DNA from: Dehalococcoidia bacterium
Lineage (GTDB): Bacteria; Chloroflexota; Dehalococcoidia; Lucifugimonadales; Australimonadaceae
Reading direction: 5' to 3'
Length of the DNA stretch: 64,000 nt
NCBI GenBank assembly: GCA_965248065.1
Contig: OZ252088.1
Coordinates: 1,740,773 to 1,804,772 of the forward strand
The translations under genes were made by a program, and so were the position numbers. Below are positions 6,381 through 61,831 of this stretch, one piece after another. Positions within the stretch are counted from its first letter, which is position 1. Each line of letters begins with the position of its first letter. Below the pieces are notes generated by a model. The model saw only the letters and a list, made by a program, of their open reading frames with translations, did not search any database and had not been told where the DNA came from.

Positions 6381-6404
6381 TTCATCGAGAGGGAGAACTC
6401 GACC

Positions 6405-7529
6405 ATGACCCAGCTCACCCCCAAGCCCGAGGTAAGGCAGGACCAGGAGCGCGTTTCCAAGGTCAGCGCCTATCAGACGTTCATCGACGGCGAGGGCGTT
6501 CCCAACATTACCGGCTTCGCGGTCGACGACGTGCGCGCGGTCGGGGTCGAGCCCTGGGCGCGGCTCGATTGCTTGGGCGCGTACATCAACCTCGACGGCA
6601 ACGCCGGGACGAACGACTGCTACGTGGCCGAGATTCCCGCGGGCGGGAAGATGGCGCCGGAGAAGCACTTGTTCGAGGAGAACATCTACGTGCTGCGGGG
6701 CAGGGGAGCGACGCTCGTGGGCGACGACCCGAACAGCCGGACCTCGTTCGAGTGGAAGGAAGGCAGCGTCTTCTCGATTCCCCTCAACGTTTGGCATCAG
6801 CACCTGAACGGCTCCGGCTCCGAGTCTGCGCGGTTCTTGGCCGTCACGACGCTGCCGCTGGTCCTCAATTTCTTTCACAACCAGGACTTCATCTTCAGCA
6901 ATCCCTTCGTATTCGAGGACCGCATGGGCGACTCGCGGCAGTTCCAGGGCGAGGGGTCCATGTACACGGGCGGCTCCGGCCGGGTGAACGTGTGGGAGAC
7001 GAACTTCATTCCGGATATCGACTCCTTCACCACGTTCAGCTGGAAGGAGCGCGGCGCCGGCGGGTCGAGCGTGATGTTCGAACTGGCGGGCAACACCCAA
7101 GCCGCCCACGTTTCCCAGTTCCCGGTCGGCACCTACAAGAAGGCGCACCGCCACGGTCCCGGCGCCCACGTCGTCATCGTCTCCGGCGACGGCTACAGCC
7201 TCCTCTGGCCGCCGGAGGGCAGCGTGCCGGACGACGTCATCCGCGTCGATTGGAAGCGCGGCGGCCTCATCGTGCCTCCCAACAACTGGTTCCATCAGCA
7301 CTTCAATGGAGGCGCCGCTCCCGCCCGCTACCTCGCCTTCCGCTGGGGGAGCCAGAAGTATGAGTTCGTGTTCGACCCCGGCGAATCGGATCTCAGCGAG
7401 AAGCTGGGCGGCGCGCAGATCGAATACGAGGACGAGGTTCCCTGGGTCCACGACACCTTCGCCGAGACGCTCACCAAGGCGGGCGCCGAGTCCAAGATGG
7501 CCGATTTCATCCCGCGCCTGCGCGGGTAG
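6405..7529 (+). CDS. Bicupin protein (gentisate-dioxygenase-like fold)
   Basis: Two cupin-like halves (..EKHLFEENIYVLRGRG.. and ..HRHGPGAHVVIVSGDG..WFHQHFN). An RBS GAGGGAG precedes the ATG. Confidence 0.65.
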   Translation: MTQLTPKPEVRQDQERVSKVSAYQTFIDGEGVPNITGFAVDDVRAVGVEPWARLDCLGAYINLDGNAGTNDCYVAEIPAGGKMAPEKHLFEENIYVLRGRGATLVGDDPNSRTSFEWKEGSVFSIPLNVWHQHLNGSGSESARFLAVTTLPLVLNFFHNQDFIFSNPFVFEDRMGDSRQFQGEGSMYTGGSGRVNVWETNFIPDIDSFTTFSWKERGAGGSSVMFELAGNTQAAHVSQFPVGTYKKAHRHGPGAHVVIVSGDGYSLLWPPEGSVPDDVIRVDWKRGGLIVPPNNWFHQHFNGGAAPARYLAFRWGSQKYEFVFDPGESDLSEKLGGAQIEYEDEVPWVHDTFAETLTKAGAESKMADFIPRLRG

Positions 7530-15889: not shown

Positions 15890-15968
15890 TTTCCGACTCG
15901 CTCGCGGACCGTCCCTTTCCGACCTCGCTCGCAGACGGCCCCCTCCCGACCTCCCCCGCAGACGGGGG
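15890..15968. repeat. Three degenerate tandem copies of a ~26-28-bp unit
   Basis: TTTCCGACTCGCTCGCGGACCGTCCC / TTTCCGACCTCGCTCGCAGACGGCCCCC / TCCCGACCTCCCCCGCAGACGGGGG. The last unit merges into an M2-type hairpin. Confidence 0.75.
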
Positions 15969-18380: not shown

Positions 18381-18462
18381 GTAAAGACGCCTGACCGCTC
18401 GCATGCCGTGGAGGCAGGATGCCGCCACTTGCGCGTCCGCAGCTATAGTGTATGATAGGTGT

Positions 18463-18672
18463 ATGGCGCGCACCAACATCGACATCGACGATCAGGCGTG
18501 CGCAGAGGTCATGCGGCGCTACCAGCTCGCCACCAAGCGCGAGGCGATCAACTTCGCCCTGCGGACGTTGGCGGCCGAACCCGCGTCTCTCGACGAGGCC
18601 CGCGCCCTCCGGGGGATTGGTTGGGAGGGCGACCTCGACGCTCTGCGCTCCGGCCGTTCGTCATGGTCCTGA
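18463..18672 (+). CDS. vapB: Type II antitoxin VapB (MARTNIDIDD type)
   Basis: MARTNIDIDDQACAEVMRRYQLATKREAINFALR is the classic VapB N-terminus. Confidence 0.85.
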   Translation: MARTNIDIDDQACAEVMRRYQLATKREAINFALRTLAAEPASLDEARALRGIGWEGDLDALRSGRSSWS

Positions 18673-19070
18673 TTGACACCTCGGCGTGGATAGAATTCCT
18701 CCGGAACACGGGTTCCATGGTTTGCGAGGCGGTTGACGAGTTGCTGGCGCACGAGGTCGCCACCTGCGATGCAGTGAGGATGGAAGTGCTCGCCGGGGCG
18801 CGGGACGAGTCGCACTTGCTGGGCCTTCGGCGACTTCTTGCGCGGGCTGCGGTGATCCCGACGCGGGCGACGGACTATGACGATGCCGCCGCACTCTATC
18901 GCCGTTGCCGGCGGCAGGGGGAGACAGTCCGAAAGCTGATTGACTGTCTCATCGCCTCCATAGCCGTACGCGCCGGCATCCCGGTCTTGCATAGCGACGC
19001 CGACTTCGAAGTGCTCGCTCGCCACACGGAGCTTGAGGTCTATACGCCCGAACGCGCACGAGGAAGCTGA
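18663..19070 (+). CDS. vapC: Type II toxin VapC (PIN domain)
   Basis: MVLIDTSAWIEFLR..C..E..D acidic pattern of a PIN domain. It overlaps the vapB 3' end by 10 nt. Confidence 0.85.
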   Translation: MVLIDTSAWIEFLRNTGSMVCEAVDELLAHEVATCDAVRMEVLAGARDESHLLGLRRLLARAAVIPTRATDYDDAAALYRRCRRQGETVRKLIDCLIASIAVRAGIPVLHSDADFEVLARHTELEVYTPERARGS

Positions 19071-19146: not shown

Positions 19147-19211
19147 AGCTGCGAAGCGCGGGGGAGGAGAGCGGCGGCGCGCAGGCTTCCCCCTCCATCA
19201 AAGGGGGCGCT

Positions 19212-19261
19212 GCGACATTTGCCCCTTCCGCCAACGCTATCTCTCCTCCTACACTGACTCC
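19212..19261 (+). repeat. C-rich box M3 (GCGACAYYTGCCCCTTCCCCCA..CTACCATG), degenerate copy
   Basis: The sequence is GCGACATTTGCCCCTTCCGCCAACGC... The family has five copies: 19212, 21308, 32975, 51271 (inverted) and 60434. Confidence 0.7.
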
Positions 19262-19303
19262 CGATATCTACACCCCCGAGACCGGAAGCTCCTCTCCCCC
19301 CTC

Positions 19304-19449
19304 CTACGAGTGAAATGAGACTAAATGAGACCAAATGAGACCTTTTTTCAGCAGCCGCTTTCCCCTCACTCGTAAACCTCCCCCATTTGCGAGTGACGCC
19401 AACGCGCCATTTCACCCTCGAAGCGGAAGCGCCGGCGCCTCATTTGCGT
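19304..19449 (+). repeat. Structured element M4, copy A (word AAATGAGAC x3); candidate ncRNA
   Basis: CTACGAGTGAAA, then three AAATGAGAC words at 10-nt spacing, then CTTTTTTCA. Hairpin 19367-19376/19386-19395 contains one T-G pair. Complements to the word region lie at 19408-19415 and 19439-19445. Confidence 0.6.
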
Positions 19450-21098: not shown

Positions 21099-21245
21099 CG
21101 CAGACCTCTTGGGTGGTCCGGCAGGCTGACCACGAGCCTATCTGATGGGCTCGTTCGATGAGCTCGCCGCGAACCGATTTGCAGAATCAGCCCCGAGTCG
21201 TGGGGGTTCCCCGAGTATAAACGACGCGCCCGGACTAGGAGGGGG

Positions 21246-21284
21246 CCGTCATTTCCGCGAAGGCGGAACCTCGCAGCGGCGCGG
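21246..21284 (-). repeat. M1-variant hairpin repeat
   Basis: The sequence is CCGTCATTTCCGCGAAGGCGGAACCTCGCAGCGGCGCGG. Confidence 0.8.
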
Positions 21285-21307
21285 TCCTTCCCCTCCCCAC
21301 CCAATCA

Positions 21308-21353
21308 CGACACTTGCCCCTTCCCCCAACGCCCCTATCCCTCTACCATGACC
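21308..21353 (+). repeat. C-rich box M3
   Basis: The sequence is CGACACTTGCCCCTTCCCCCAACGCCCCTATCCCTCTACCATGACC. The complement carries four G-runs. Confidence 0.8.
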
Positions 21354-21420
21354 GCCCCCGACCCTGTACGAGGACACCCCGGCTCCGCTGCGCAACCGCG
21401 CCCCGCGCCGCCGCTCCGGC

Positions 21421-21521
21421 CTCACGAGTAAAATTGCGCACTTTTGCGCGCCTTTGCGCACTTTTCACCCCTCCCACTCGTAAACCTGCGCATTTTACGA
21501 GTGAGGAGCAGCGCAAAAGGC
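21421..21521 (+). repeat. Structured element M4, copy B (word TTGCGCRC x3); candidate ncRNA
   Basis: CTCACGAGTAAAA, then three TTGCGCRC-type words, then CTTTTCA. A perfect 10-bp hairpin lies at 21475-21484/21494-21503. GCGCAAAAG (21511-21519) is complementary to CTTTTGCGC (21441-21449). Confidence 0.6.
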
Positions 21522-21673
21522 AGGCGTTTTCGGCCCCGTTGTGAGTAATGACGGAGGGGGCGCGGAACGACGGAGGGCACGGCTCACTACCTCTGCGAGG
21601 GGCCTATTTTCGAAGCAATCTCTCATGTGGGCCTGTCGGCCCACGTCACAACCGACGAAAATGGGGGTGGAGC

Positions 21674-21710
21674 GGCCCCCTCTCTAACTCCCCTCCGTCT
21701 GCGGGGGAGA
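21674..21710 (+). repeat. M2 repeat
   Basis: The sequence is GGCCCCCTCTCTAACTCCCCTCCGTCTGCGGGGGAGA. Confidence 0.8.
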
Positions 21711-21751
21711 AGATTATTGGGGGAATGACGGAAGGAGTCCGAGGTGACGGT

Positions 21752-22309
21752 GTGAAGAAGAGCGGGTCGCAAGGCCGGCGGTCGACCCTGGTTCGAGCCG
21801 CGTTGCTGGCGGCGCTCGCGCTCGTAGCGGGCGCCGCTCCGGCGTACGCCCACGGACAGCACGAGCTCGAGGTCGAGCTGTTCAGGGGCGCGAAGGGGCC
21901 CTATGAGCTCTGGGTCACCGCCGTGCCCCTGGTCGGCTTCCTGGAAGTCGCGGTGACGTTCGAGCCGGATGCTCCGGACGCTGAGCTCGGCTACAGCCCG
22001 CGCGTCGTGGTGTCGGCGACGAGGGACGGCGTGCGGCTCGGCCCTAAGACCGCAACCCGCGCCTTTCTCGTCACGGCCAATGACTACTCGGCCACCTTCG
22101 ACCCCGGCGGCGAGGGACAATGGGAGATCGTGATCAACATCGATTCCGAGCGCGGCCCCGAGACGCTCACGCTGCCGGTGACCGTAACCCAGGGGAGGGG
22201 CTTCCCCTGGACGGCGCTGATCGCCGGGCTGGGACTGGTCCTGCCTATCGTCTGGCTGGCGTGGGGGGCCGTCCGGCGCAAGGGCCGCGCCAAGCGGCGG
22301 AGAACATGA
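21752..22309 (+). CDS. Secreted protein with C-terminal membrane anchor (predicted mature N-terminal His)
   Basis: Signal peptide ..LVAGAAPAYA followed by HGQHE, plus a C-terminal TM and basic tail. GTG at 21752 was chosen because the upstream ATG lies inside repeat DNA. Confidence 0.55.
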   Translation: MKKSGSQGRRSTLVRAALLAALALVAGAAPAYAHGQHELEVELFRGAKGPYELWVTAVPLVGFLEVAVTFEPDAPDAELGYSPRVVVSATRDGVRLGPKTATRAFLVTANDYSATFDPGGEGQWEIVINIDSERGPETLTLPVTVTQGRGFPWTALIAGLGLVLPIVWLAWGAVRRKGRAKRRRT

Positions 22310-32867: not shown

Positions 32868-33290
32868 GGGCTCCCCCCTGCCTCTGCAAGAGGGGCCGCG
32901 CCCGGCTCTCCTCTCGCGGACGGGAGGGAGTTTATCGTCCTCTCCTCCGCCTGCGGGGGAGACTGAGAGGGGCCGCGACATCTGCCCCTTCCCCCATCCC
33001 CCACCAACCCCTACCATGGACTCCGACAGACTACGCGCTGTCCCCTTCCGTTCCCCTCCTTGCCAAGGAGGGGCTAGGGGTGGTCCCACAGGGGGTCCGG
33101 CGCCCCCCACCAGCCCCGGAAATCCGGGGGGTCGAATTTCTTGAATTCTTGCATTCTTAACCCCCTTCCACCGCACCACGGCCTGGTAAACAGGATCAGA
33201 AAGTTCCGGGGAAAATAAGTTCTTGCCCCCCACTCCGCCGCCCGGCGACCGCGCCACGGCCACGTAAAGGCGGCTCCGAGTCGGCGTTGG
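32868..33290 (+). repeat. Composite repeat block R1 (M2-like hairpins + M3 + M5)
   Basis: M3 lies at 32975-33028 and M5 at 33124-33268. The block is an inverted counterpart of 50803-51325. Confidence 0.8.
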
Positions 33291-42877: not shown

Positions 42878-43828
42878 CTACGCACGGGGGTGTGCTCGCT
42901 CGAATGTCTCACGGACTTGCCGGTCTGTCAGATGTGTGTAGACCTGCGTAGTTGAAATACTAGCATGTCCCAACAGCTCCTGGACATGCCGCAGCGGAGC
43001 GCCCCCGCGCAGCAGGTGCGTGGCGAAGCTATGGCGCAACGTATGTGGCGAGAGCCTGCGCCGGATTTCGCCACGGGCTCCGGCGCGCTTCAGGATCAGC
43101 CAGTACCCTTGCCGCGTCATTGCGCTGCCTCGCGCGTTGAGAAAGAGAGCCGTCGTCACCGGGCCCCGGCGTCTTGAGTGCGCGAGCAGCTGCGGACGAA
43201 CGTCACTGACGTAGGAAGCCAGCTGATGAACGATGCCGGGATACACCGGCGCGAGGCGCTCCTTCGATCCCTTGCCGAGCACCCGTATCCAGCCCGAATC
43301 GAGGCTCAGCGCCGAGACCGAGAGCCCCTGCGGGCCGACGACCTCCGACACCCGCAGCCCGGCCGCGTAAGTCAGCTCCAGCATCACCCGGTCCCGCACG
43401 CCCTCGGGGCCGGGCCGGGCGCTCGCCGCCTTGAGCAAGCGCGCCACCTCCTGCTCCGTCAGCACGTCGGGCAGCGAGCGGGCAGGGCGGCGCGATTGCA
43501 TGTGCTCCGCCGGGTTGGCGTCGATGACGCCCTCTTCCAGGAGGAACCGAAAGAACGAGCGCGAAGCCGCTGTCTTGCGGGCGAGGCTGGTCTCTGAGTA
43601 GCCGTGCTTTGCCAGCGTCAGCCGCGCGTTCTCCACGTCGCGCTGGGCGACTGCCGTCCAGCGTATGTCCGAACGCCCGCCGCCCAGAAGATGCTGAAGC
43701 TGAGTCAGGTCGGCCCTATAGGCCGCAATCGTATTGGCCGAGAGGCCGCGCTCCGCGCGAAGGTGGCTGAGGAACGCCTCGATCTGCTGGTCGGCTTCCC
43801 GGATGGTTTCCCTGACAGAGGTAGTCAT
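42878..43828 (-). CDS. Tyrosine recombinase, XerC/XerD family
   Basis: FLSHLRAERGLSANTIAAYRADL at the N-terminus, then GLRVSE and HTLRHSFATHLL..LLGHASISTTQVYTH catalytic motifs. Confidence 0.9.
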   Translation of the reverse strand: MTTSVRETIREADQQIEAFLSHLRAERGLSANTIAAYRADLTQLQHLLGGGRSDIRWTAVAQRDVENARLTLAKHGYSETSLARKTAASRSFFRFLLEEGVIDANPAEHMQSRRPARSLPDVLTEQEVARLLKAASARPGPEGVRDRVMLELTYAAGLRVSEVVGPQGLSVSALSLDSGWIRVLGKGSKERLAPVYPGIVHQLASYVSDVRPQLLAHSRRRGPVTTALFLNARGSAMTRQGYWLILKRAGARGEIRRRLSPHTLRHSFATHLLRGGAPLRHVQELLGHASISTTQVYTHLTDRQVRETFERAHPRA

Positions 43829-43918
43829 AGTTCGACTATTCTAGGAAGCGCGCCTGCGGCTATGGCATGAGGTTGGCATGCCGGAAACGTCAGGTTGCGA
43901 TAGCTTGCAAAGCCGCCC

Positions 43919-45983: not shown

Positions 45984-47657
45984 ATGAGCAACGAGCCGCA
46001 GCCTGTCGAGCAGACGGCCCCCGCCCAGGACCGTGTGCTCGCGTTGGGCATGGACCGGCGGCGGTTCATGGTGAAGGCCGCCGCCCTTGGGCTGACCGCG
46101 ACCGCCATGCCCGCCTTCCTCGCCGCCTGCGCGCAGCTCGACGCGACTGCAACCGCTTCAACCCCCACGCCCGCGAGCACTCCCTTCCCCACGCCAACCC
46201 CGTTCCGTGAGGCAGCCGTTACGCCCTCCCCGACGCCCACGGCGACGCCGGTTTCGCCGACGCCGACCGCCATGTCTGCGCCTACGGCAACGCCGGCGCC
46301 CACGGCAACGCCAACCCCCACGCCCGCGCCCACGGCAACGCCGACGCCTACGGCAACGCCGACCCCCACGCCGACGCCTACTCCAACGCCGCTCCCACCC
46401 TTGCTGGCCGGCGAGGACGCCCGCGTTAGCCACTTGCTATGGCGCGCCGGGTTCGGCGCGTCGCAGGCGGAGCTGGCCCGCTTCCGCGGCATGGGACTGC
46501 AGGCGACGATCGATCACCTCGTCGATTTCGAGTCCGTCGACGACGAGCCGCTGGAAGCCCGCCTGGCCGAGCAGAATCTCGATTTGGAGGGCAAGCTCAA
46601 TCACCTCCAGCGCTGGTGGCTCCAGCGCATGGCGTATACAGAGCGGCCTTTGCAAGAGAAGATCACTCTCTTCTGGCACGGCATCTTGACCAGCTCCTTC
46701 AAGAAGACCGGCGACGGACCGCAGATGCTGCAGCAGAACCAGCTCTTCCGTACGCAGGGCATGGGCCGGTACAGCGACATGCTGAAGGCCGTCTCACGCG
46801 ACCCTGCGATGATGATCTATCTCGACAGCCGCTCCAATAAGAAGGCGGCCCCCAACGAGAACTACTCCCGCGAGCTCATGGAGCTCTTCAGCCTCGGCAT
46901 CGGGCCCTACTCCGAGGACGACGTCCGCGAGTCGGCGAGGGCCTTCACCGGCTGGCAGCTGAAGCGCAAGACCGAGTTCTTCTTCAACGAGCGCCAGCAC
47001 GACTTCGGCGATAAGACCTTCCTTGGGCAGACCGGCGATTTCGACGGCGACGACATCGTCGACATCATCATGGCCAAGCCCGCCGCCGCCGAGTACGTCT
47101 GCACGCGGCTATGGCGGTTCTTCGCATACGACGACCCCGAGCCCGCCGTCATCGCGCGCCTCAGCGCGATCTTCAAGTCCGACGATTTCTACTCCGACCG
47201 CGCCGCCGCCGCATTGGTGAAAGCGCCTGTCGAACTCGCCGCGGGCGCGGTGCGGTCCCTCGAGGTCAGCACCGACTTCGTCCCGCTCGACCCTATCATC
47301 GAGAAAATGGGCCAGGCGCTCTTCGTTCCGCCCAACGTGGCGGGCTGGCCGGGCGGCGTTACGTGGATAAACAGCTCAACCCTCCTCCAACGCGTGAACA
47401 TGGCCAACGCTATCGCGACCGCCCGCCGCGGCCGCATGCGGTTCGATCCCAAACGGCTCGTGGAGGAGCACGCCGCCGCCGGGTCCGAGGGCATCGTCAC
47501 CTTCTTCGGCGACCTGCTGCTCGGCCCCCGGCTGCGCCGGACCGAGCGCCAGCTCCTCGTCTCCTTCCTCGAGGGTCTGGACGACTCATCACTCAACGAG
47601 AAGCTGCGCAGCGTCGCCTTTCTGATGCTCGCGTCGCCGGACTTCCAGCTGGCATGA
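45984..47657 (+). CDS. DUF1800 domain protein with Tat signal and Thr/Pro-rich linker
   Basis: [14 protein letters not shown] is a twin-arginine signal. A long [10 protein letters not shown] linker follows, and [23 protein letters not shown] is DUF1800-like. Confidence 0.75.
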
Positions 47658-50689: not shown

Positions 50690-51493
50690 CGCGGCGTCGA
50701 ATCAACAAGAGGGGGCACGGCGGGTTTCTGCCGGACATTGCGCCGTGGGTGGAGGAGCAAGAACTTTTTTTCGCAGGCCCCTTCAATTCTTGGAATCCTT
50801 GATTTACGTGGCCGTGATGCGGTCGGCGGGCGACGGGGCAGGGGGCAGAAACTGAAATTCCCCGGACGTTTCTGATCCTGTTTACTAGGCCGTGGTGCGG
50901 TGGAAGGGGGGTTAAGAATCCAAGAACCCACAAATTTCGGCCCCCCCGGTTTTGGGGCCCCCTCTCTAACTCTCCCCCGCAGACGGGGGCTTTGCGTAAC
51001 CCTATTTTCCGGCGGGCGTAACTCTTCCCACCCACCCGCCCGTCATGTTGTGGGGGACACCCCCACGCCCCCCGGCAGAGGGGCGTCGCCCCTCTGCGCT
51101 CCCCGGTATTCCAGACTGGTTCATGGTTCGACAGGCTCATCACGAACCGATTGGGAAAGGGAGAACGATTGGGGAGGGCGGTCCTTGATCGCCCCTACGA
51201 TTATGCAAAGGTCTCGCAGACGGGGGAGAGGTTTAGGGGAGGAGGCAGGGAGGGCGCGCCGACTCTTGCTTGTCGGAGTCCATGGTAGGGATCGGTTGGG
51301 GATGGGGGAAGGGGCAAGTGTCGCCGTGGGGGCTATCGCCGGTAGTCGGGGTTCTTGCCCTCCGCCTCGTCGCGGGCGCTTCACCATCGCCGACAGCAGG
51401 GCTCCCACGCTGAGACCGGAGCCGGCAGAGATGGCGACGAAGAGGATCAGGCCGATGCTGCGGGCAAGGCCGAAACCTTCCTCGTCCATCGCC
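50690..51493 (-). repeat. Composite repeat block R2 (M5 + inverted M2 pair + M3)
   Basis: M5 lies at 50803-50949, M2 at 50954-50999 and (inverted) 51201-51243, and M3 (inverted) at 51271-51325. Confidence 0.8.
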
Positions 51494-52732: not shown

Positions 52733-52869
52733 GAGAGCCTCCTCAAAGAGCGCTCTCGTCGCGGGTGAGCGCGCGTCGATTCTAGGCGCGGTCAGCGACC
52801 GCTACAAGCTCGCCGCGGACTGCCCCTTCTCTCTAGCAACGATGAAAGTGGCGGGTGGGGCGCCGATAC

Positions 52870-52903
52870 CTGGATTCCCGCCTGCGCGGGAATGACGGAA
52901 GGG
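52870..52903 (+). repeat. M1 hairpin repeat
   Basis: The sequence is CTGGATTCCCGCCTGCGCGGGAATGACGGAAGGG. Confidence 0.85.
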
Positions 52904-56338: not shown

Positions 56339-56346
56339 AGGGGCGA

Positions 56347-56373
56347 GGTTCCCGCCTGCGCGGGAATGACGGG
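56347..56373 (+). repeat. M1 hairpin repeat
   Basis: GGTTCCCGCCTGCGCGGGAATGACGGG lies between convergent genes. Confidence 0.85.
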
Positions 56374-56383
56374 ATTGGGGGGG

Positions 56384-58263: not shown

Positions 58264-58337
58264 CGCGGCTGATATGTATCGAAGAGGCGGTTGCGCGACG
58301 GAACGGAATATGTGCGGGTTGTAGGACCATTATGGCC

Positions 58338-58400
58338 GGGACGCCATTATATACGTGCGGAATACGCGATATACGTGCGGAGTACGTGCATATATTCGGC
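58338..58400. promoter_or_regulatory. Three 21-bp tandem repeats (ATATACGTGCGGARTACG core), operator-like
   Basis: Units lie at 58338, 58359 and 58380, with a degenerate fourth at ~58297. The stretch is AT-rich and sits just upstream of the cupredoxin gene. Confidence 0.55.
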
Positions 58401-58452
58401 GAATCATGGTAATATTGTAGTGCGAGGTGGGTGGACAGCCGGGAGGTGCGTC

Positions 58453-58971
58453 ATGAAGACGAGGCTGTTCCTGATACTGGGAACGTTGGTTGGCTGCGCC
58501 GGGAGCGTCGTTGCGTGCGGCGAGGAGGCGCCGCCGCCCTCCACGGTCGCAATCGAGCTGGACGAATACACCGTCTCGGCAACGTCCTACAAGGCGGCTG
58601 CCGGTCATGTGACGTTCAACGTCCGAAACGTCGGCAGCCTCGAGCACGAGCTCATGGTGCTGCGGACGGATATGCCGGCGGACCGACTGCTCTATGCGGA
58701 TGGCGCGGTGGTCCTCGAAAGGGCGGGCCGCTTGGCTGGCCAGGTTACGCCTGACGTGCACGGCGGCGAAACCGGCGATATGCCCGGAGACGAATCCATG
58801 CGTGGAGAAGAGACCGGCGGCATGGAGGACATGGAGCACGGAGGCCACTTCATCGGGCCGGATGGGACCGGACAAGGGGTCTTCGACCTCGAGCCCGGCT
58901 CCTACGTGCTGATCTGCAACATTCCGACACACTACCGCTTGGGCATGTACGCCGAGCTGGAAGTTTCCTGA
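58453..58971 (+). CDS. Cupredoxin-domain lipoprotein (type-1 copper site candidate)
   Basis: Lipobox LVGCAG. Candidate ligands are H in LEHELMV and C-x4-H-x4-M in LICNIPTHYRLGM. An internal Met/His/Asp/Glu-rich loop is present. Confidence 0.75.
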   Translation: MKTRLFLILGTLVGCAGSVVACGEEAPPPSTVAIELDEYTVSATSYKAAAGHVTFNVRNVGSLEHELMVLRTDMPADRLLYADGAVVLERAGRLAGQVTPDVHGGETGDMPGDESMRGEETGGMEDMEHGGHFIGPDGTGQGVFDLEPGSYVLICNIPTHYRLGMYAELEVS

Positions 58972-60401: not shown

Positions 60402-60433
60402 GAGGGCAGGGAAGGAGGGGAGGGGGCCGCACT

Positions 60434-60480
60434 GCGACATCTGCCCCTTTCCCCAACGTCCTTCCCCGCCTACCATGTCC
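60434..60480 (+). repeat. C-rich box M3
   Basis: The sequence is GCGACATCTGCCCCTTTCCCCAACGTCCTTCCCCGCCTACCATGTCC. Confidence 0.8.
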
Positions 60481-60524
60481 CCCTCGCAGCCCATGCCCGA
60501 TTCCGCGCCGGGCCGCCGTCCCAA

Positions 60525-60627
60525 CTTACGAGTAAATGGCGCTAAATGGCACCAAATGGCACACTTTTCAAGCCTCTCCACTCGTAGACTCGTGCGATGT
60601 GCGAGTGGCTGCTTGCGCCATTTTCGG
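60525..60627 (+). repeat. Structured element M4, copy C (word AAATGGCRC x3); candidate ncRNA
   Basis: CTTACGAGTAAA, then three AAATGGCRC words at 10-nt spacing, then CTTTTCA. Hairpin 60578-60586/60600-60608 contains a T-G pair. GCGCCATTT (60615-60623) is the exact complement of word 1 (60534-60542). Confidence 0.6.
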
Positions 60628-60735
60628 CCCGTTCCGGCCCTTTACGAGCGACAATCGCGTCGGACGGAGCATAAAGCGGGGCCGCAGGAGACGCCGCTTC
60701 GTAGAAATCAGCACTTTGACGTAAGCAGAGGTTGT

Positions 60736-60979: not shown

Positions 60980-61831
60980 ATGAGAACGACGACGCGGCTC
61001 CGCGAGCTGCTGACGGCCGACCGGATGCTGCTTGCGCCCTTCACCTACGACGGCTTCACCGCCAAGGTTGCCCAGGAGGCAGGGTTCGACGCCGTGTACA
61101 TGTCCGGCTTTGGCACATCCATGTCAAAGGGCCTGCCGGACGTGGGCTTGCTCACCCAGACCGAGATGGTCCAGAACGCCGCCTATATCGCCGCTGCCGT
61201 CGACGTTCCCGTCATCGCCGACGCCGACACCGGCTACGGCAACGCGATCAATGTCCGCCGCACCATCCGCGAGTACGAGCGGGCAGGCGTCGCGGGCGTC
61301 CACGTCGAGGACCAGGTTGCTCCCAAGAAGTGCGGCTTCTTCGACGGCAAGGATGTCATTCCCCTCGACGAGGCCGCCGCCAAGGTCCGCGCCGCCGTCG
61401 AAGCGCGGGACGACGGCGATTTCGTCGTCATCGCTCGCACGGACGCCCTCGTCGTCAACGGCTGGGACGACGTAGCCAATCGCTGCAGGGCGTTCGTCGA
61501 GGCAGGGGCCGATCTCGTATTCGTCGACGGCATTCGCACCGCCGCCGACCTTCGGGAGTTCGCGGAGCGGCTTGGCGATCTCCCGCGCATGTACAACGGC
61601 GAGATTGTCCCCGCGGAGGTCGAGGAGCTCGGCTTCAAGCTGCAGATTCACCGCGGCCCCGTCTTCTCGCTCTACCCCATCGTGAAAGAGATGATGGTCG
61701 AGCTGCGCGAAAGCGGCCGCATCTCGGCGCTGGACCGCTACGGCTCCGGCGGCGAGCTGCGCATGTCCATAGCCAACGCCCTCGGCCTTGGCGAGATTAC
61801 CGAGCTCGAACGGCGCTACGCCGCCGGGTAG
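60980..61831 (+). CDS. Isocitrate lyase / PEP mutase superfamily enzyme
   Basis: MSGFG..ADADTGYGN..GVHVEDQ..PKKCG..ARTDA motifs are present. Confidence 0.85.
   Translation: MRTTTRLRELLTADRMLLAPFTYDGFTAKVAQEAGFDAVYMSGFGTSMSKGLPDVGLLTQTEMVQNAAYIAAAVDVPVIADADTGYGNAINVRRTIREYERAGVAGVHVEDQVAPKKCGFFDGKDVIPLDEAAAKVRAAVEARDDGDFVVIARTDALVVNGWDDVANRCRAFVEAGADLVFVDGIRTAADLREFAERLGDLPRMYNGEIVPAEVEELGFKLQIHRGPVFSLYPIVKEMMVELRESGRISALDRYGSGGELRMSIANALGLGEITELERRYAAG

Follow-up and report, generated by a model that had tools for sequence, protein, structure and literature searches.

A strain-polymorphic intergenic repeat unit of Dehalococcoidia with a promoter-like head and a putative copy-specific outer helix around a conserved hairpin

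[quoted passage not shown] The case dealt with here is a ~230-bp repeat unit (head, leader and body), present as copies A, B and C in a 64,000-nucleotide stretch, ‘the window’, of contig OZ252088.1 of a Dehalococcoidia bacterium (assembly GCA_965248065.1, positions 1,740,773 to 1,804,772). Neither REP/BIME nor BOX elements are known to show a conserved scaffold with an outer helix that changes wholesale from copy to copy. That there are small, mobile and sometimes promoter-bearing intergenic repeats is already known in general, two examples being putative mobile promoters and promoter reuse (Nijveen, Matus-Garcia and van Passel 2012, PMC3575422) and a MITE containing a minisatellite in P. gingivalis (PMC4596501).

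The reading put forward, tentatively and with a likelihood somewhat short of even, is that the unit is insertion-polymorphic and self-promoted, and that its putative transcript folds a copy-specific outer helix (P1) around a conserved hairpin (P2). A first-pass annotation made from the letters of the window had flagged ~100 bases at copy B; these are not a free-standing element but the folded core, or body, of a larger unit whose promoter-like head is 75-85 nt upstream. Its description of the body itself stands, positions included: all three copies are on the + strand and have in common ACGAGTR, a set of three 10-nt words, CTTTTCA, an 8-10-bp hairpin and, downstream, a segment complementary to the word. 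The pattern is backed by the arrays of period 10 and about three copies that Tandem Repeats Finder reports at each, and by CACTCGTARAC, which with one mismatch allowed has 7 matches in the window where 1.14 are expected, none of 100 shuffles reaching 7. In the window, ACGAGTRAA is found only at copies A, B and C.

In copy B the hairpin is a perfect 10 bp and CTTTTGCGC (21441-49) is exactly complementary to GCGCAAAAG (21511-19), both as originally described, and the accompanying caution, that the core TGCGCA of this copy is self-complementary, was justified. In the register of the rest of the family it is GCGCAA, a 10-nt bulge and TTT that pair with word 1. For copy A the identification of CTCATTT (19439-19445) as the complement is to be withdrawn, that sequence being ~35 nt beyond the homologous position; nor does alignment of the tails support it as a motif of the conserved scaffold. 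At the place where B and C have their complements, copy A has GCGCCATTTCAC (19404-19415), whose partner is the junction of box and word 1, GTGAAATG, rather than the core of the word.

Relatives of the window were reached via protein homologues, namely of the phosphoenolpyruvate (PEP) mutase, with homologues at up to 99-100% identity and source-named ones (at most 83% identity) from Chloroflexi/Dehalococcoidia metagenome-assembled genomes, and of an EVE-domain protein. With nhmmer and a covariance model, ten full copies of the body are known, the three in the window and seven in relatives (L012, L013, L019, L021, L024, L046 at 6404-6521, here L046b, and L052), together with one degenerate copy in L002; the covariance model (R1) yielded no further copies in 468 kb of relatives. 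A strict scaffold pattern, TTTTCA..CACTCGTARAC..TRCGAGTG, had no matches in genome and metagenome contig collections, because the pattern is too narrow and the source genome is outside those collections.

On the alignment of the ten full copies (A4) a two-helix structure, P1 plus P2, was set and compared with slid partners and with 500 shuffles. Of its cells, 80% are paired, a share that drops to 30-44% if the partners are shifted by 1-3 columns, and seven pairs change on both sides, with a covariation score that 5 of the 500 shuffles reached. The P2 hairpin, whose arms hardly vary among copies, has 89.7% of its cells paired. When own and swapped partners were compared by RNAduplex energy, the duplex of box and word 1 with its own complement had a mean of -9.97 kcal/mol and the swapped ones -6.81 (p=0.002, a permutation value that overstates independence because the ten copies are kin), whereas for words 2-3 against the complement p was 0.13; the complement therefore follows word 1. 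Copy B is the exception, its words 2 and 3 pairing best with the complement. In L013 and copy C, AAATGGCGC is matched by GCGCCATT(T), and in L021 and copy B, AATTGCGC by GCGCAGTT or GCGCAA..TTT. The claim that the complement changes with the word in every copy is thus to be narrowed: the seven additional copies confirm a variable word with a co-varying downstream segment, with the match being to word 1 only and lost in three of the ten. Prediction of the + strand fold pairs word with complement around the hairpin in 3/3 window copies (z = -3.2, -4.1 and -2.6).

The same few words turn up in different genomes, a small vocabulary made up of TGAGAC, TGGCRC, TTGCGCA, TGTCTCA and TGACTCA. For instance, AAATGGCAC is found in copy C, L012 and L046b, and two copies of AATGTCTCAC are found both in L024 and in L015-type units. 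The same word array is found on different scaffold subtypes, and arrays can be heterogeneous, as in L013 and L024, where word 1 is unlike words 2-3. As a separate observation, the vocabulary holds a reverse-complement pair, TGAGAC(A)/TGTCTCA (window A, L019, L052, L024 and L015/L027/L053/L054), which would in principle let the transcript of one unit pair with that of another.

Alignment of the three regions reveals, 75-85 nt upstream of each ACGAGT box, a conserved head, GCGACAYYTGCCCCTTYCSCCA-N15/16-(C)TACCATG, with core CCCCACYGCGACAYYTGCCCCTTYCSCCA-N15/16-TACCAT, and between it and the body a leader of 57-81 nt in the window copies (50-74 nt from TAnnnT to box). The head is present five times in the window, with the two extra ones at 32973 (+) and 51326 (-). 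A genome scan with the head motif GACAYYTGCCCCTTYCSCCA gave 56 loci, 35 of them with real heads, and with L003 and the five window heads the set comes to 38; 27 matches in metagenome contigs are mostly due to chance. Real heads are confined to a few Dehalococcoidia/Chloroflexota metagenome-assembled genomes (OZ244741.1, CBDHDB01, CBDFLP01 and JAPOOH01), other matches being chance ones in Streptomyces and other genera, and every real head has short tandem words and a scaffold 60-120 nt downstream. After TTYCSC, all 38 have a hexamer of the TAnnnT type (37 TAnnnT and one TACACC), at 17 nt in 30 heads and 18 nt in 8, with 30 distinct spacers; the hexamer is TACCAT in 29 and TACCCT, TACACT, TACGAT, TACGCT or TACACC in the others. 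In this geometry, TTYCSC-N17/18-TAnnnT, the head looks like a promoter. Given that native promoters at the empty sites are TTGACA-N17/18-TAnnnT, the -10 fits and the -35 is weak. The upstream block is also present, together with TATAAT, in two metagenome contigs that are unrelated, where the spacer from TTCCGC to TATAAT is 16 nt. An observation from metagenome sequence of ~50% G+C is also pertinent: L071 (197-260), L086 and L091 have GACATTTGCCCCTTCCGCCA and then TATAAT 14 nt on, directly upstream of a gene in L086 and L091. The head block may represent a wider Chloroflexota promoter type.

None of the three window units is present at the orthologous site in the closest relatives. Five independent assemblies with a 99-100% identical flanking PEP mutase lack unit C, as does L002, where the enzyme is 92% identical; the unit is not in L001-L005, and the intergenic region, 330 nt in the window, is 63-135 nt in assemblies that lack the unit. 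Neither unit A nor unit B is present in L062-L065, whose EVE-domain protein is 95-96% identical. At site C the relatives carry a TTGACA-N18-GAGTAT promoter, and the unit sits exactly at that -35, leaving GCGACA 13 nt from GAGCAT, so that the predicted native promoter is disrupted in the window. At site B (window 21240-21720, compared with 4426-5000 in L062-L065) REP modules and the unit replace the relatives' TTGACA promoter and a 135-aa gene, the first in an operon of four hypothetical genes of which the next is kept (90% identity, 21722-22264). At site A, a vapBC pair and REP modules accompanied the unit on its arrival, and the native promoter region downstream of it is intact; the vapBC pair is missing in L063-L065, where the intergenic region is 99-120 nt, and L062 has vapB and a deleted vapC. 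The pair, vapB and vapC (PIN), has a luciferase-like monooxygenase on either side, the two being tandem paralogues.

The next gene is co-oriented with the unit in 9/9 evaluable copies, and of 11 copies six are in divergent intergenic regions and none in convergent ones, an orientation that supports a function read outward from the unit. The genes downstream include a luciferase-like monooxygenase, a membrane-protein operon, the PEP-mutase operon and Rieske oxygenases.

In the mechanism proposed, a lineage-specific unit of head, leader and body would spread or turn over between closely related strains and lodge in a 5′ intergenic region, facing the gene. Transcription would probably start from its own promoter in the head, TTYCSC-N17/18-TACCAT, and the body would form the 5′ part of a leader or a separate small RNA. 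The RNA is predicted to fold P2, the conserved inner hairpin CACUCGUARA/UUUACGAGUG, and P1, the copy-specific outer helix of word 1 with a segment 7-8 nt past the hairpin. Words 2 and 3, as tandem copies of the 5′ strand of P1, would be unpaired in the P1 loop or would provide alternative pairing registers for the complement.

Besides the kinship of the copies, a number of points weigh against this reading. With regard to the head, TTYCSC is a poor match to the TTGACA of native promoters in the same genomes, a consensus scanner calls no sigma-70 promoter at the head and no intrinsic terminator, and the constant spacing could stem from common descent rather than constraint. With regard to the RNA, the minus strand of B and C folds with good scores too (z = -3.5 and -2.4), wobble counts are not decisive on strand (P2 has 6 G.U and 3 A.C cells), P1 is lost in 3/10 copies (L046b, L024 and L019), and a scaffold relative at L046 4533 has the hairpin with neither box nor words. 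The downstream genes are functionally unrelated, with no common regulatory logic visible, and unit D, of the sister family described next, is between convergent genes.

The sister family has the same head and a different body, in which the word TTCTTGRA is present three times at period 8 and the scaffold ACCGCAYCACGGCCWSGTAAA twice. Its members are the two units at the extra window heads (32973-33280 on the + strand and 51326-50700 on the - strand) and those of L003, L006, L008, L011, L016, L029, L047 and L055; the second, unit E, is present in L003 and missing from L001 and L004. Across nine copies, S1 (5′ arm), S2 (3′ arm) and S3 (~85 nt downstream) co-vary, the main types being GTTCAGAAA/TTTCTGTTTCT/AAGAACAGAAGG and GTTGTGAAA/TTTCGCATCTT/AAGATGTGAAGG. 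S1:S2 and S2:S3 are mutually exclusive helices in which own beats swapped partner (p=0.003 and 0.007), and the G.U wobbles fall on the head-sense strand. The two families share a design, a hairpin with a third copy of one arm, and its recurrence suggests selection on nucleic-acid structure rather than accident. Other head-bearing types have a TGAGCC word (four copies in OZ244741), GGACAACTTCT, or direct ACTCGTAAAC repeats.

OZ244741.1 also has a genuine MITE of 347-348 bp with terminal inverted repeats (TIRs) GYAACTGTTCAGA, an 8-bp target site duplication (TSD) and at least 10 near-identical copies (L009, L031-L034, L038, L044, L050, L059 and L060), often 5-20 nt upstream of a TTGACA -35 box. 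In this MITE the head is located 38 nt from the end, and the GGATTCTTG words are similar to the TIR of the element itself. The TIR starting with GTAA (also written GTAACTGTTCAGA) and the 8-bp duplication point to a possible likeness to IS66. Two REP-like modules recur in the window. One, the palindrome TTCCCGCCTGCGCGGGAATGACGG(A/G)AGGG, is found in both orientations and often beside head-bearing units. Where the other, GGCCCCCTCTCTAACTCYCCCCCGYCTGCGGGGGAG, is just upstream of a head, its G-rich arm can pair with the C-rich head to give a long hairpin, hence the microRNA-like noise matches in the RNA-family search; a general identity of the head as the 3′ arm of such a hairpin was rejected, as it holds only where the module adjoins (C and D).

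Among the alternatives, the one that survives best, though somewhat unlikely, is that the units are selfish or neutral mosaic repeat DNA of the BIME/REP-cluster kind with no host function, the decamer array being a slippage-homogenized minisatellite and the hairpin and word/complement inverted repeat relics of its origin or of single-stranded DNA intermediates. Presence/absence polymorphism would be expected of such DNA, as would the shuffling of modules, with the same arrays on different scaffolds and heterogeneous arrays (L013 and L024), the embedding of units among two REP-like families and the decay of P1 in 3/10 copies; a minisatellite-bearing MITE also provides a precedent (PMC4596501). 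What is unexpected of neutral insertions is the 9/9 orientation bias towards the downstream gene. In addition, diverged copies agree better in their word cores than in their scaffold, P1 has stayed complementary over four or five different word sequences, and the array stays at three words in most copies.

An unlikely alternative is a DNA-level element in which the words are protein-binding sites and the RNA fold is incidental. The binder could be a transposase or recombinase with subterminal repeats, or a factor that recognizes direct repeats at a spacing of one helical turn (OmpR/PhoB-type or ribbon-helix-helix), and a synapse or DNA loop would have its second site in the inverted downstream copy. 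The word period of exactly 10 bp is in keeping with this, though in the sister family the periods, 8 and 12 nt, are out of step with a helical turn. The return of one small vocabulary in various genomes and scaffolds, including TGAGAC/GTCTCA, also favors it, but a single protein cannot account for a copy-specific word in a conserved scaffold, and the complement tracks word 1 base for base even outside any common core. Within the unit, ACGAGTG is present three times, two direct and one inverted, and the OZ244741 MITE bears the same head, with GGATTCTTG words like its own TIR; units A-C are not bounded by TIRs or an unambiguous TSD (the B and C ends being set against the empty sites). No transposase was found among the window proteins and no regulator gene linked to the units, the only recombinase gene, XerC/D-like, being at least 17 kb from any copy. 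Unit C is flanked on both sides by GCGACA where relatives have a single TTGACA, but GCGACA is also part of every head, which makes this direct repeat, at C only, ambiguous. At the 3′ boundaries of C (60645-60655) and B (21538-21548) there is further box-like sequence, TTTACGAGCGACA and GTTGTGAGTAATG respectively, and the body may thus have a direct repeat of the ACGAGT box on either side.

A ligand riboswitch or protein-dependent attenuator, with the 5′ ACGAGU box competing with the 3′ arm for the hairpin 5′ arm, as suggested in the first-pass annotation, is very improbable indeed, for although box and 3′ arm are identical, L052 combines a T-to-C change in its box with a pairing-compatible A-to-G change in the 5′ arm, and the sister family offers an analogy in its predicted co-varying alternative helices, no expression platform (neither terminator nor sequestered Shine-Dalgarno sequence) was found, the downstream genes are not related to one another, Rfam gives no match, the box is AGGAGY in the L024, L046b and L052 subfamily, breaking the arm pairing, and the L021 box has a C with the arm unchanged.

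How the putative self-promoted unit with its P1 and P2 compares with described classes can now be considered. As in promoter reuse (PMC3575422), near-identical regions of promoter geometry, that is highly similar upstream DNA, precede non-homologous genes and differ between close strains, but the block is far longer, has a structured body with tandem words, and no flanking insertion sequence or other vehicle was found. MITE-like features are small size (~230 bp), non-coding character, multiple copies (three in 64 kb and seven in relatives), intergenic location, insertion polymorphism and an internal short tandem array, and a true MITE in a sister genome shares the head; unlike MITEs, B and C have no TIRs at the boundaries given by the empty sites, and orientation is biased to the downstream gene. 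The first-pass annotation had envisaged that a known mobile element with ends explaining the motifs would undo its proposal. This proved correct in part, because the unit belongs to a strain-polymorphic modular superfamily of intergenic repeats, and incorrect in that no TIR or TSD ends explain the motifs. The mosaic of short modules in varied order, beside genuine REP-like palindromes, recalls BIME/REP clusters and BOX; the AT-containing arms, 5′ regions, 9/9 co-orientation and zero convergent locations do not fit REP, BIME or REP-doublet (REPIN) elements, in a comparison that involved no search aimed at the REP-associated transposase RAYT. With attenuators and riboswitch platforms the units share a conserved hairpin plus a third arm copy, a co-varying long-range helix and a 5′ sense-strand position, and they differ from them in having no conserved ligand or protein pocket, terminator, platform for sequestering a Shine-Dalgarno sequence, coherent downstream genes or Rfam relative. 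Consistent with the initial statement that no described RNA class was recognized, Rfam gave no match at gathering score over the whole window and only noise at E-values up to 10, and plasmid and phage collections gave no match. Among the repeat and RNA classes compared, there is no match for a conserved scaffold with a wholesale-variable, self-matched word triplicated on one side, for the recurring vocabulary, or for a head common to several body types.

Several specific identities were considered and rejected. For an integron attC or tyrosine-recombinase core site, the arms CACTCGTAAA and TTTACGAGTG misfit R'' RYYYAAC/R' GTTRRRY and the only recombinase is distant. [quoted passage not shown] The ATG/TTG of the words are in three different frames, with AGGAG-TAA-ATG in one subfamily, and a small open reading frame was rejected because reading frames are not conserved, that of L013 stopping after 7 codons and the long frames of A and C being ordinary at 66% G+C. 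TGGCAC resembles the -24 box of a sigma-54 promoter, but the spacing to TTGC is one base off and most words lack GG. At P1 or P2 an intrinsic terminator is disfavored by a non-conserved U-tract (2-4 U), the scanner finding none; a T-box-like pairing with a tRNA 3′ end, UGGC:GCCA, suits only two word types; for phased A-tract curved DNA, L021 keeps the GC core and not the A/T linkers; and most of the C-rich heads, though not those of A and C, could form a G-quadruplex or i-motif.

Coordinates are collected in the table below. The window is otherwise ordinary chromosome of 66% G+C, with genes that include monooxygenases, ABC and Pst transporters, UvrC, RecJ and the PEP-mutase operon; no tRNA genes were found in it. 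Two repeats in the window are of a different kind. The N-terminal part of a DUF1800 protein has a long imperfect coding repeat, and an AT-richer tandem repeat, unusual at 66% G+C, is near the start of an open reading frame (58291-58971).

Table. Features of the window and forms of the words and of P1 in the copies (A-C, window; L, relatives)
Feature	Position	Strand	Content
Body of copy A	19303-19426	+	
Body of copy B	21420-21538	+	
Body of copy C	60524-60632	+	
Period-10 array, A	19313-19342		
Period-10 array, B	21434-21465		
Period-10 array, C	60533-60562		
Unit B head	21305-21355	+	GACACTTGCCCCTTCCCCCA 21309-21328; -35-like TTCCCC 21321-26; 17-nt spacer; -10-like TACCAT 21344-49
Unit B leader	21350-21423	+	variable, GC-rich, unalignable between copies
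Unit B box	21424-21430	+	ACGAGTA (ACGAGT 21424-21429), same sequence as hairpin 3′ arm
Unit B words	21431-21467	+	AAATTGCGCA, CTTTTGCGCG, CCTTTGCGCA; TTGCGC cores 21434-39, 21444-49, 21454-59; then CTTTTCA 21461-67, which looks like a degenerate fourth word
Unit B P2 hairpin	21475-21503	+	CACTCGTAAA 21475-84 / TTTACGAGTG 21494-503, perfect 10 bp; 9-nt loop CCTGCGCAT
Unit B P1 3′ strand	21511-21537	+	GCGCAAAAG(GC), pairs with word 2 or 3; conserved tail TTTTCGGCCCC after it
Unit A	19210-19445	+	head 19210-19264: TTCCGC 19226-31, TACACT 19250-55
Unit A body	19306-19445	+	box 19306-12; AAATGAGAC three times, 19313-42; hairpin 19367-76/19386-95; GCGCCATTTCAC 19404-15; CTCATTT 19439-45
Unit C	60431-60650	+	head 60431-60485, TACCAT 60471-76
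Unit C body	60528-60623	+	box 60528-33; words AAATGGCGCT, AAATGGCACC, AAATGGCACA 60534-63; hairpin 60579-86/60600-07; GCGCCATTT 60615-23; tail TCGGCCC
P1 in L052			AGATGTCTCA / TGAGACATCT, 10/10
P1 in C			9/9
P1 in L012			GAATGGCACT / AGTGACATTC, 9/10
P1 in L013			8/9
P1 in L021			8/9, one wobble
P1 in B			9/9 with a 10-nt bulge allowed
P1 in A			shifted register, GTGAAATG / CATTTCAC
P1 in L046b, L024, L019			lost
Word AAATGAGAC			A, L019; three times, nearly identical in both despite diverged scaffolds
Word AAATGGCRC			C, L012, L046b; word 1 of L013 and L024
Word TTGCGCA			B, L021
Word AATGTCTCA			L052; words 2-3 of L024; L015-type units
Word TTGACTCA			words 2-3 of L013
Unit D (sister family)	32973-33280	+	three TTCTTGRA words 33138-33158; scaffold ACCGCACCACGGCCTGGTAAAC...
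Unit E (sister family) and REP-like modules	50700-51326	-	head 51326-51265; body ~50940-50730
Palindrome TTCCCGCCTGCGCGGGAATGACGG(A/G)AGGG	403-437, 1695-1729, 52869-52903, 56343-56377; also 21253-21280, 19150-19175		
REP-like module GGCCCCCTCTCTAACTCYCCCCCGYCTGCGGGGGAG	1589-1617, 15929-15957, 21666-21712, 50948-50976, 32940-32975		
vapB-vapC (PIN) pair	18403-19070		
XerC/D-like recombinase gene	42878-43840		
PEP mutase	60980-61831		
DUF1800 coding repeat	46221-46398		periods 6, 12, 18, 48; CCCACGGCAACGCCG-like
20-nt tandem repeat	58349-58386		ATATACGTGCGGAATACGCG x1.9

A more elaborate interpretation, distinctly improbable, is that the units are mobile self-promoted riboregulator genes in which a conserved scaffold (P2 and its flanks) displays a swappable cassette of 20-30 nt, with two or three tandem copies of a 7-9-nt word from the small vocabulary, masked in cis by the P1 complement. 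If that were so, the words would address different partners, either RNAs (including those of sister units, with TGAGAC/GUCUCA) or proteins, and the units would amount to a modular, re-addressable regulatory RNA family spreading between promoter regions. The head motif is an easily searchable marker for gathering hundreds of copies for covariation statistics. If the head is an active promoter, the units would rewire the transcription of ordinary metabolic genes between strains with 95-100% protein identity, and would provide, from an uncultured and little-studied lineage of Chloroflexota, a concrete instance of mobile regulatory DNA.

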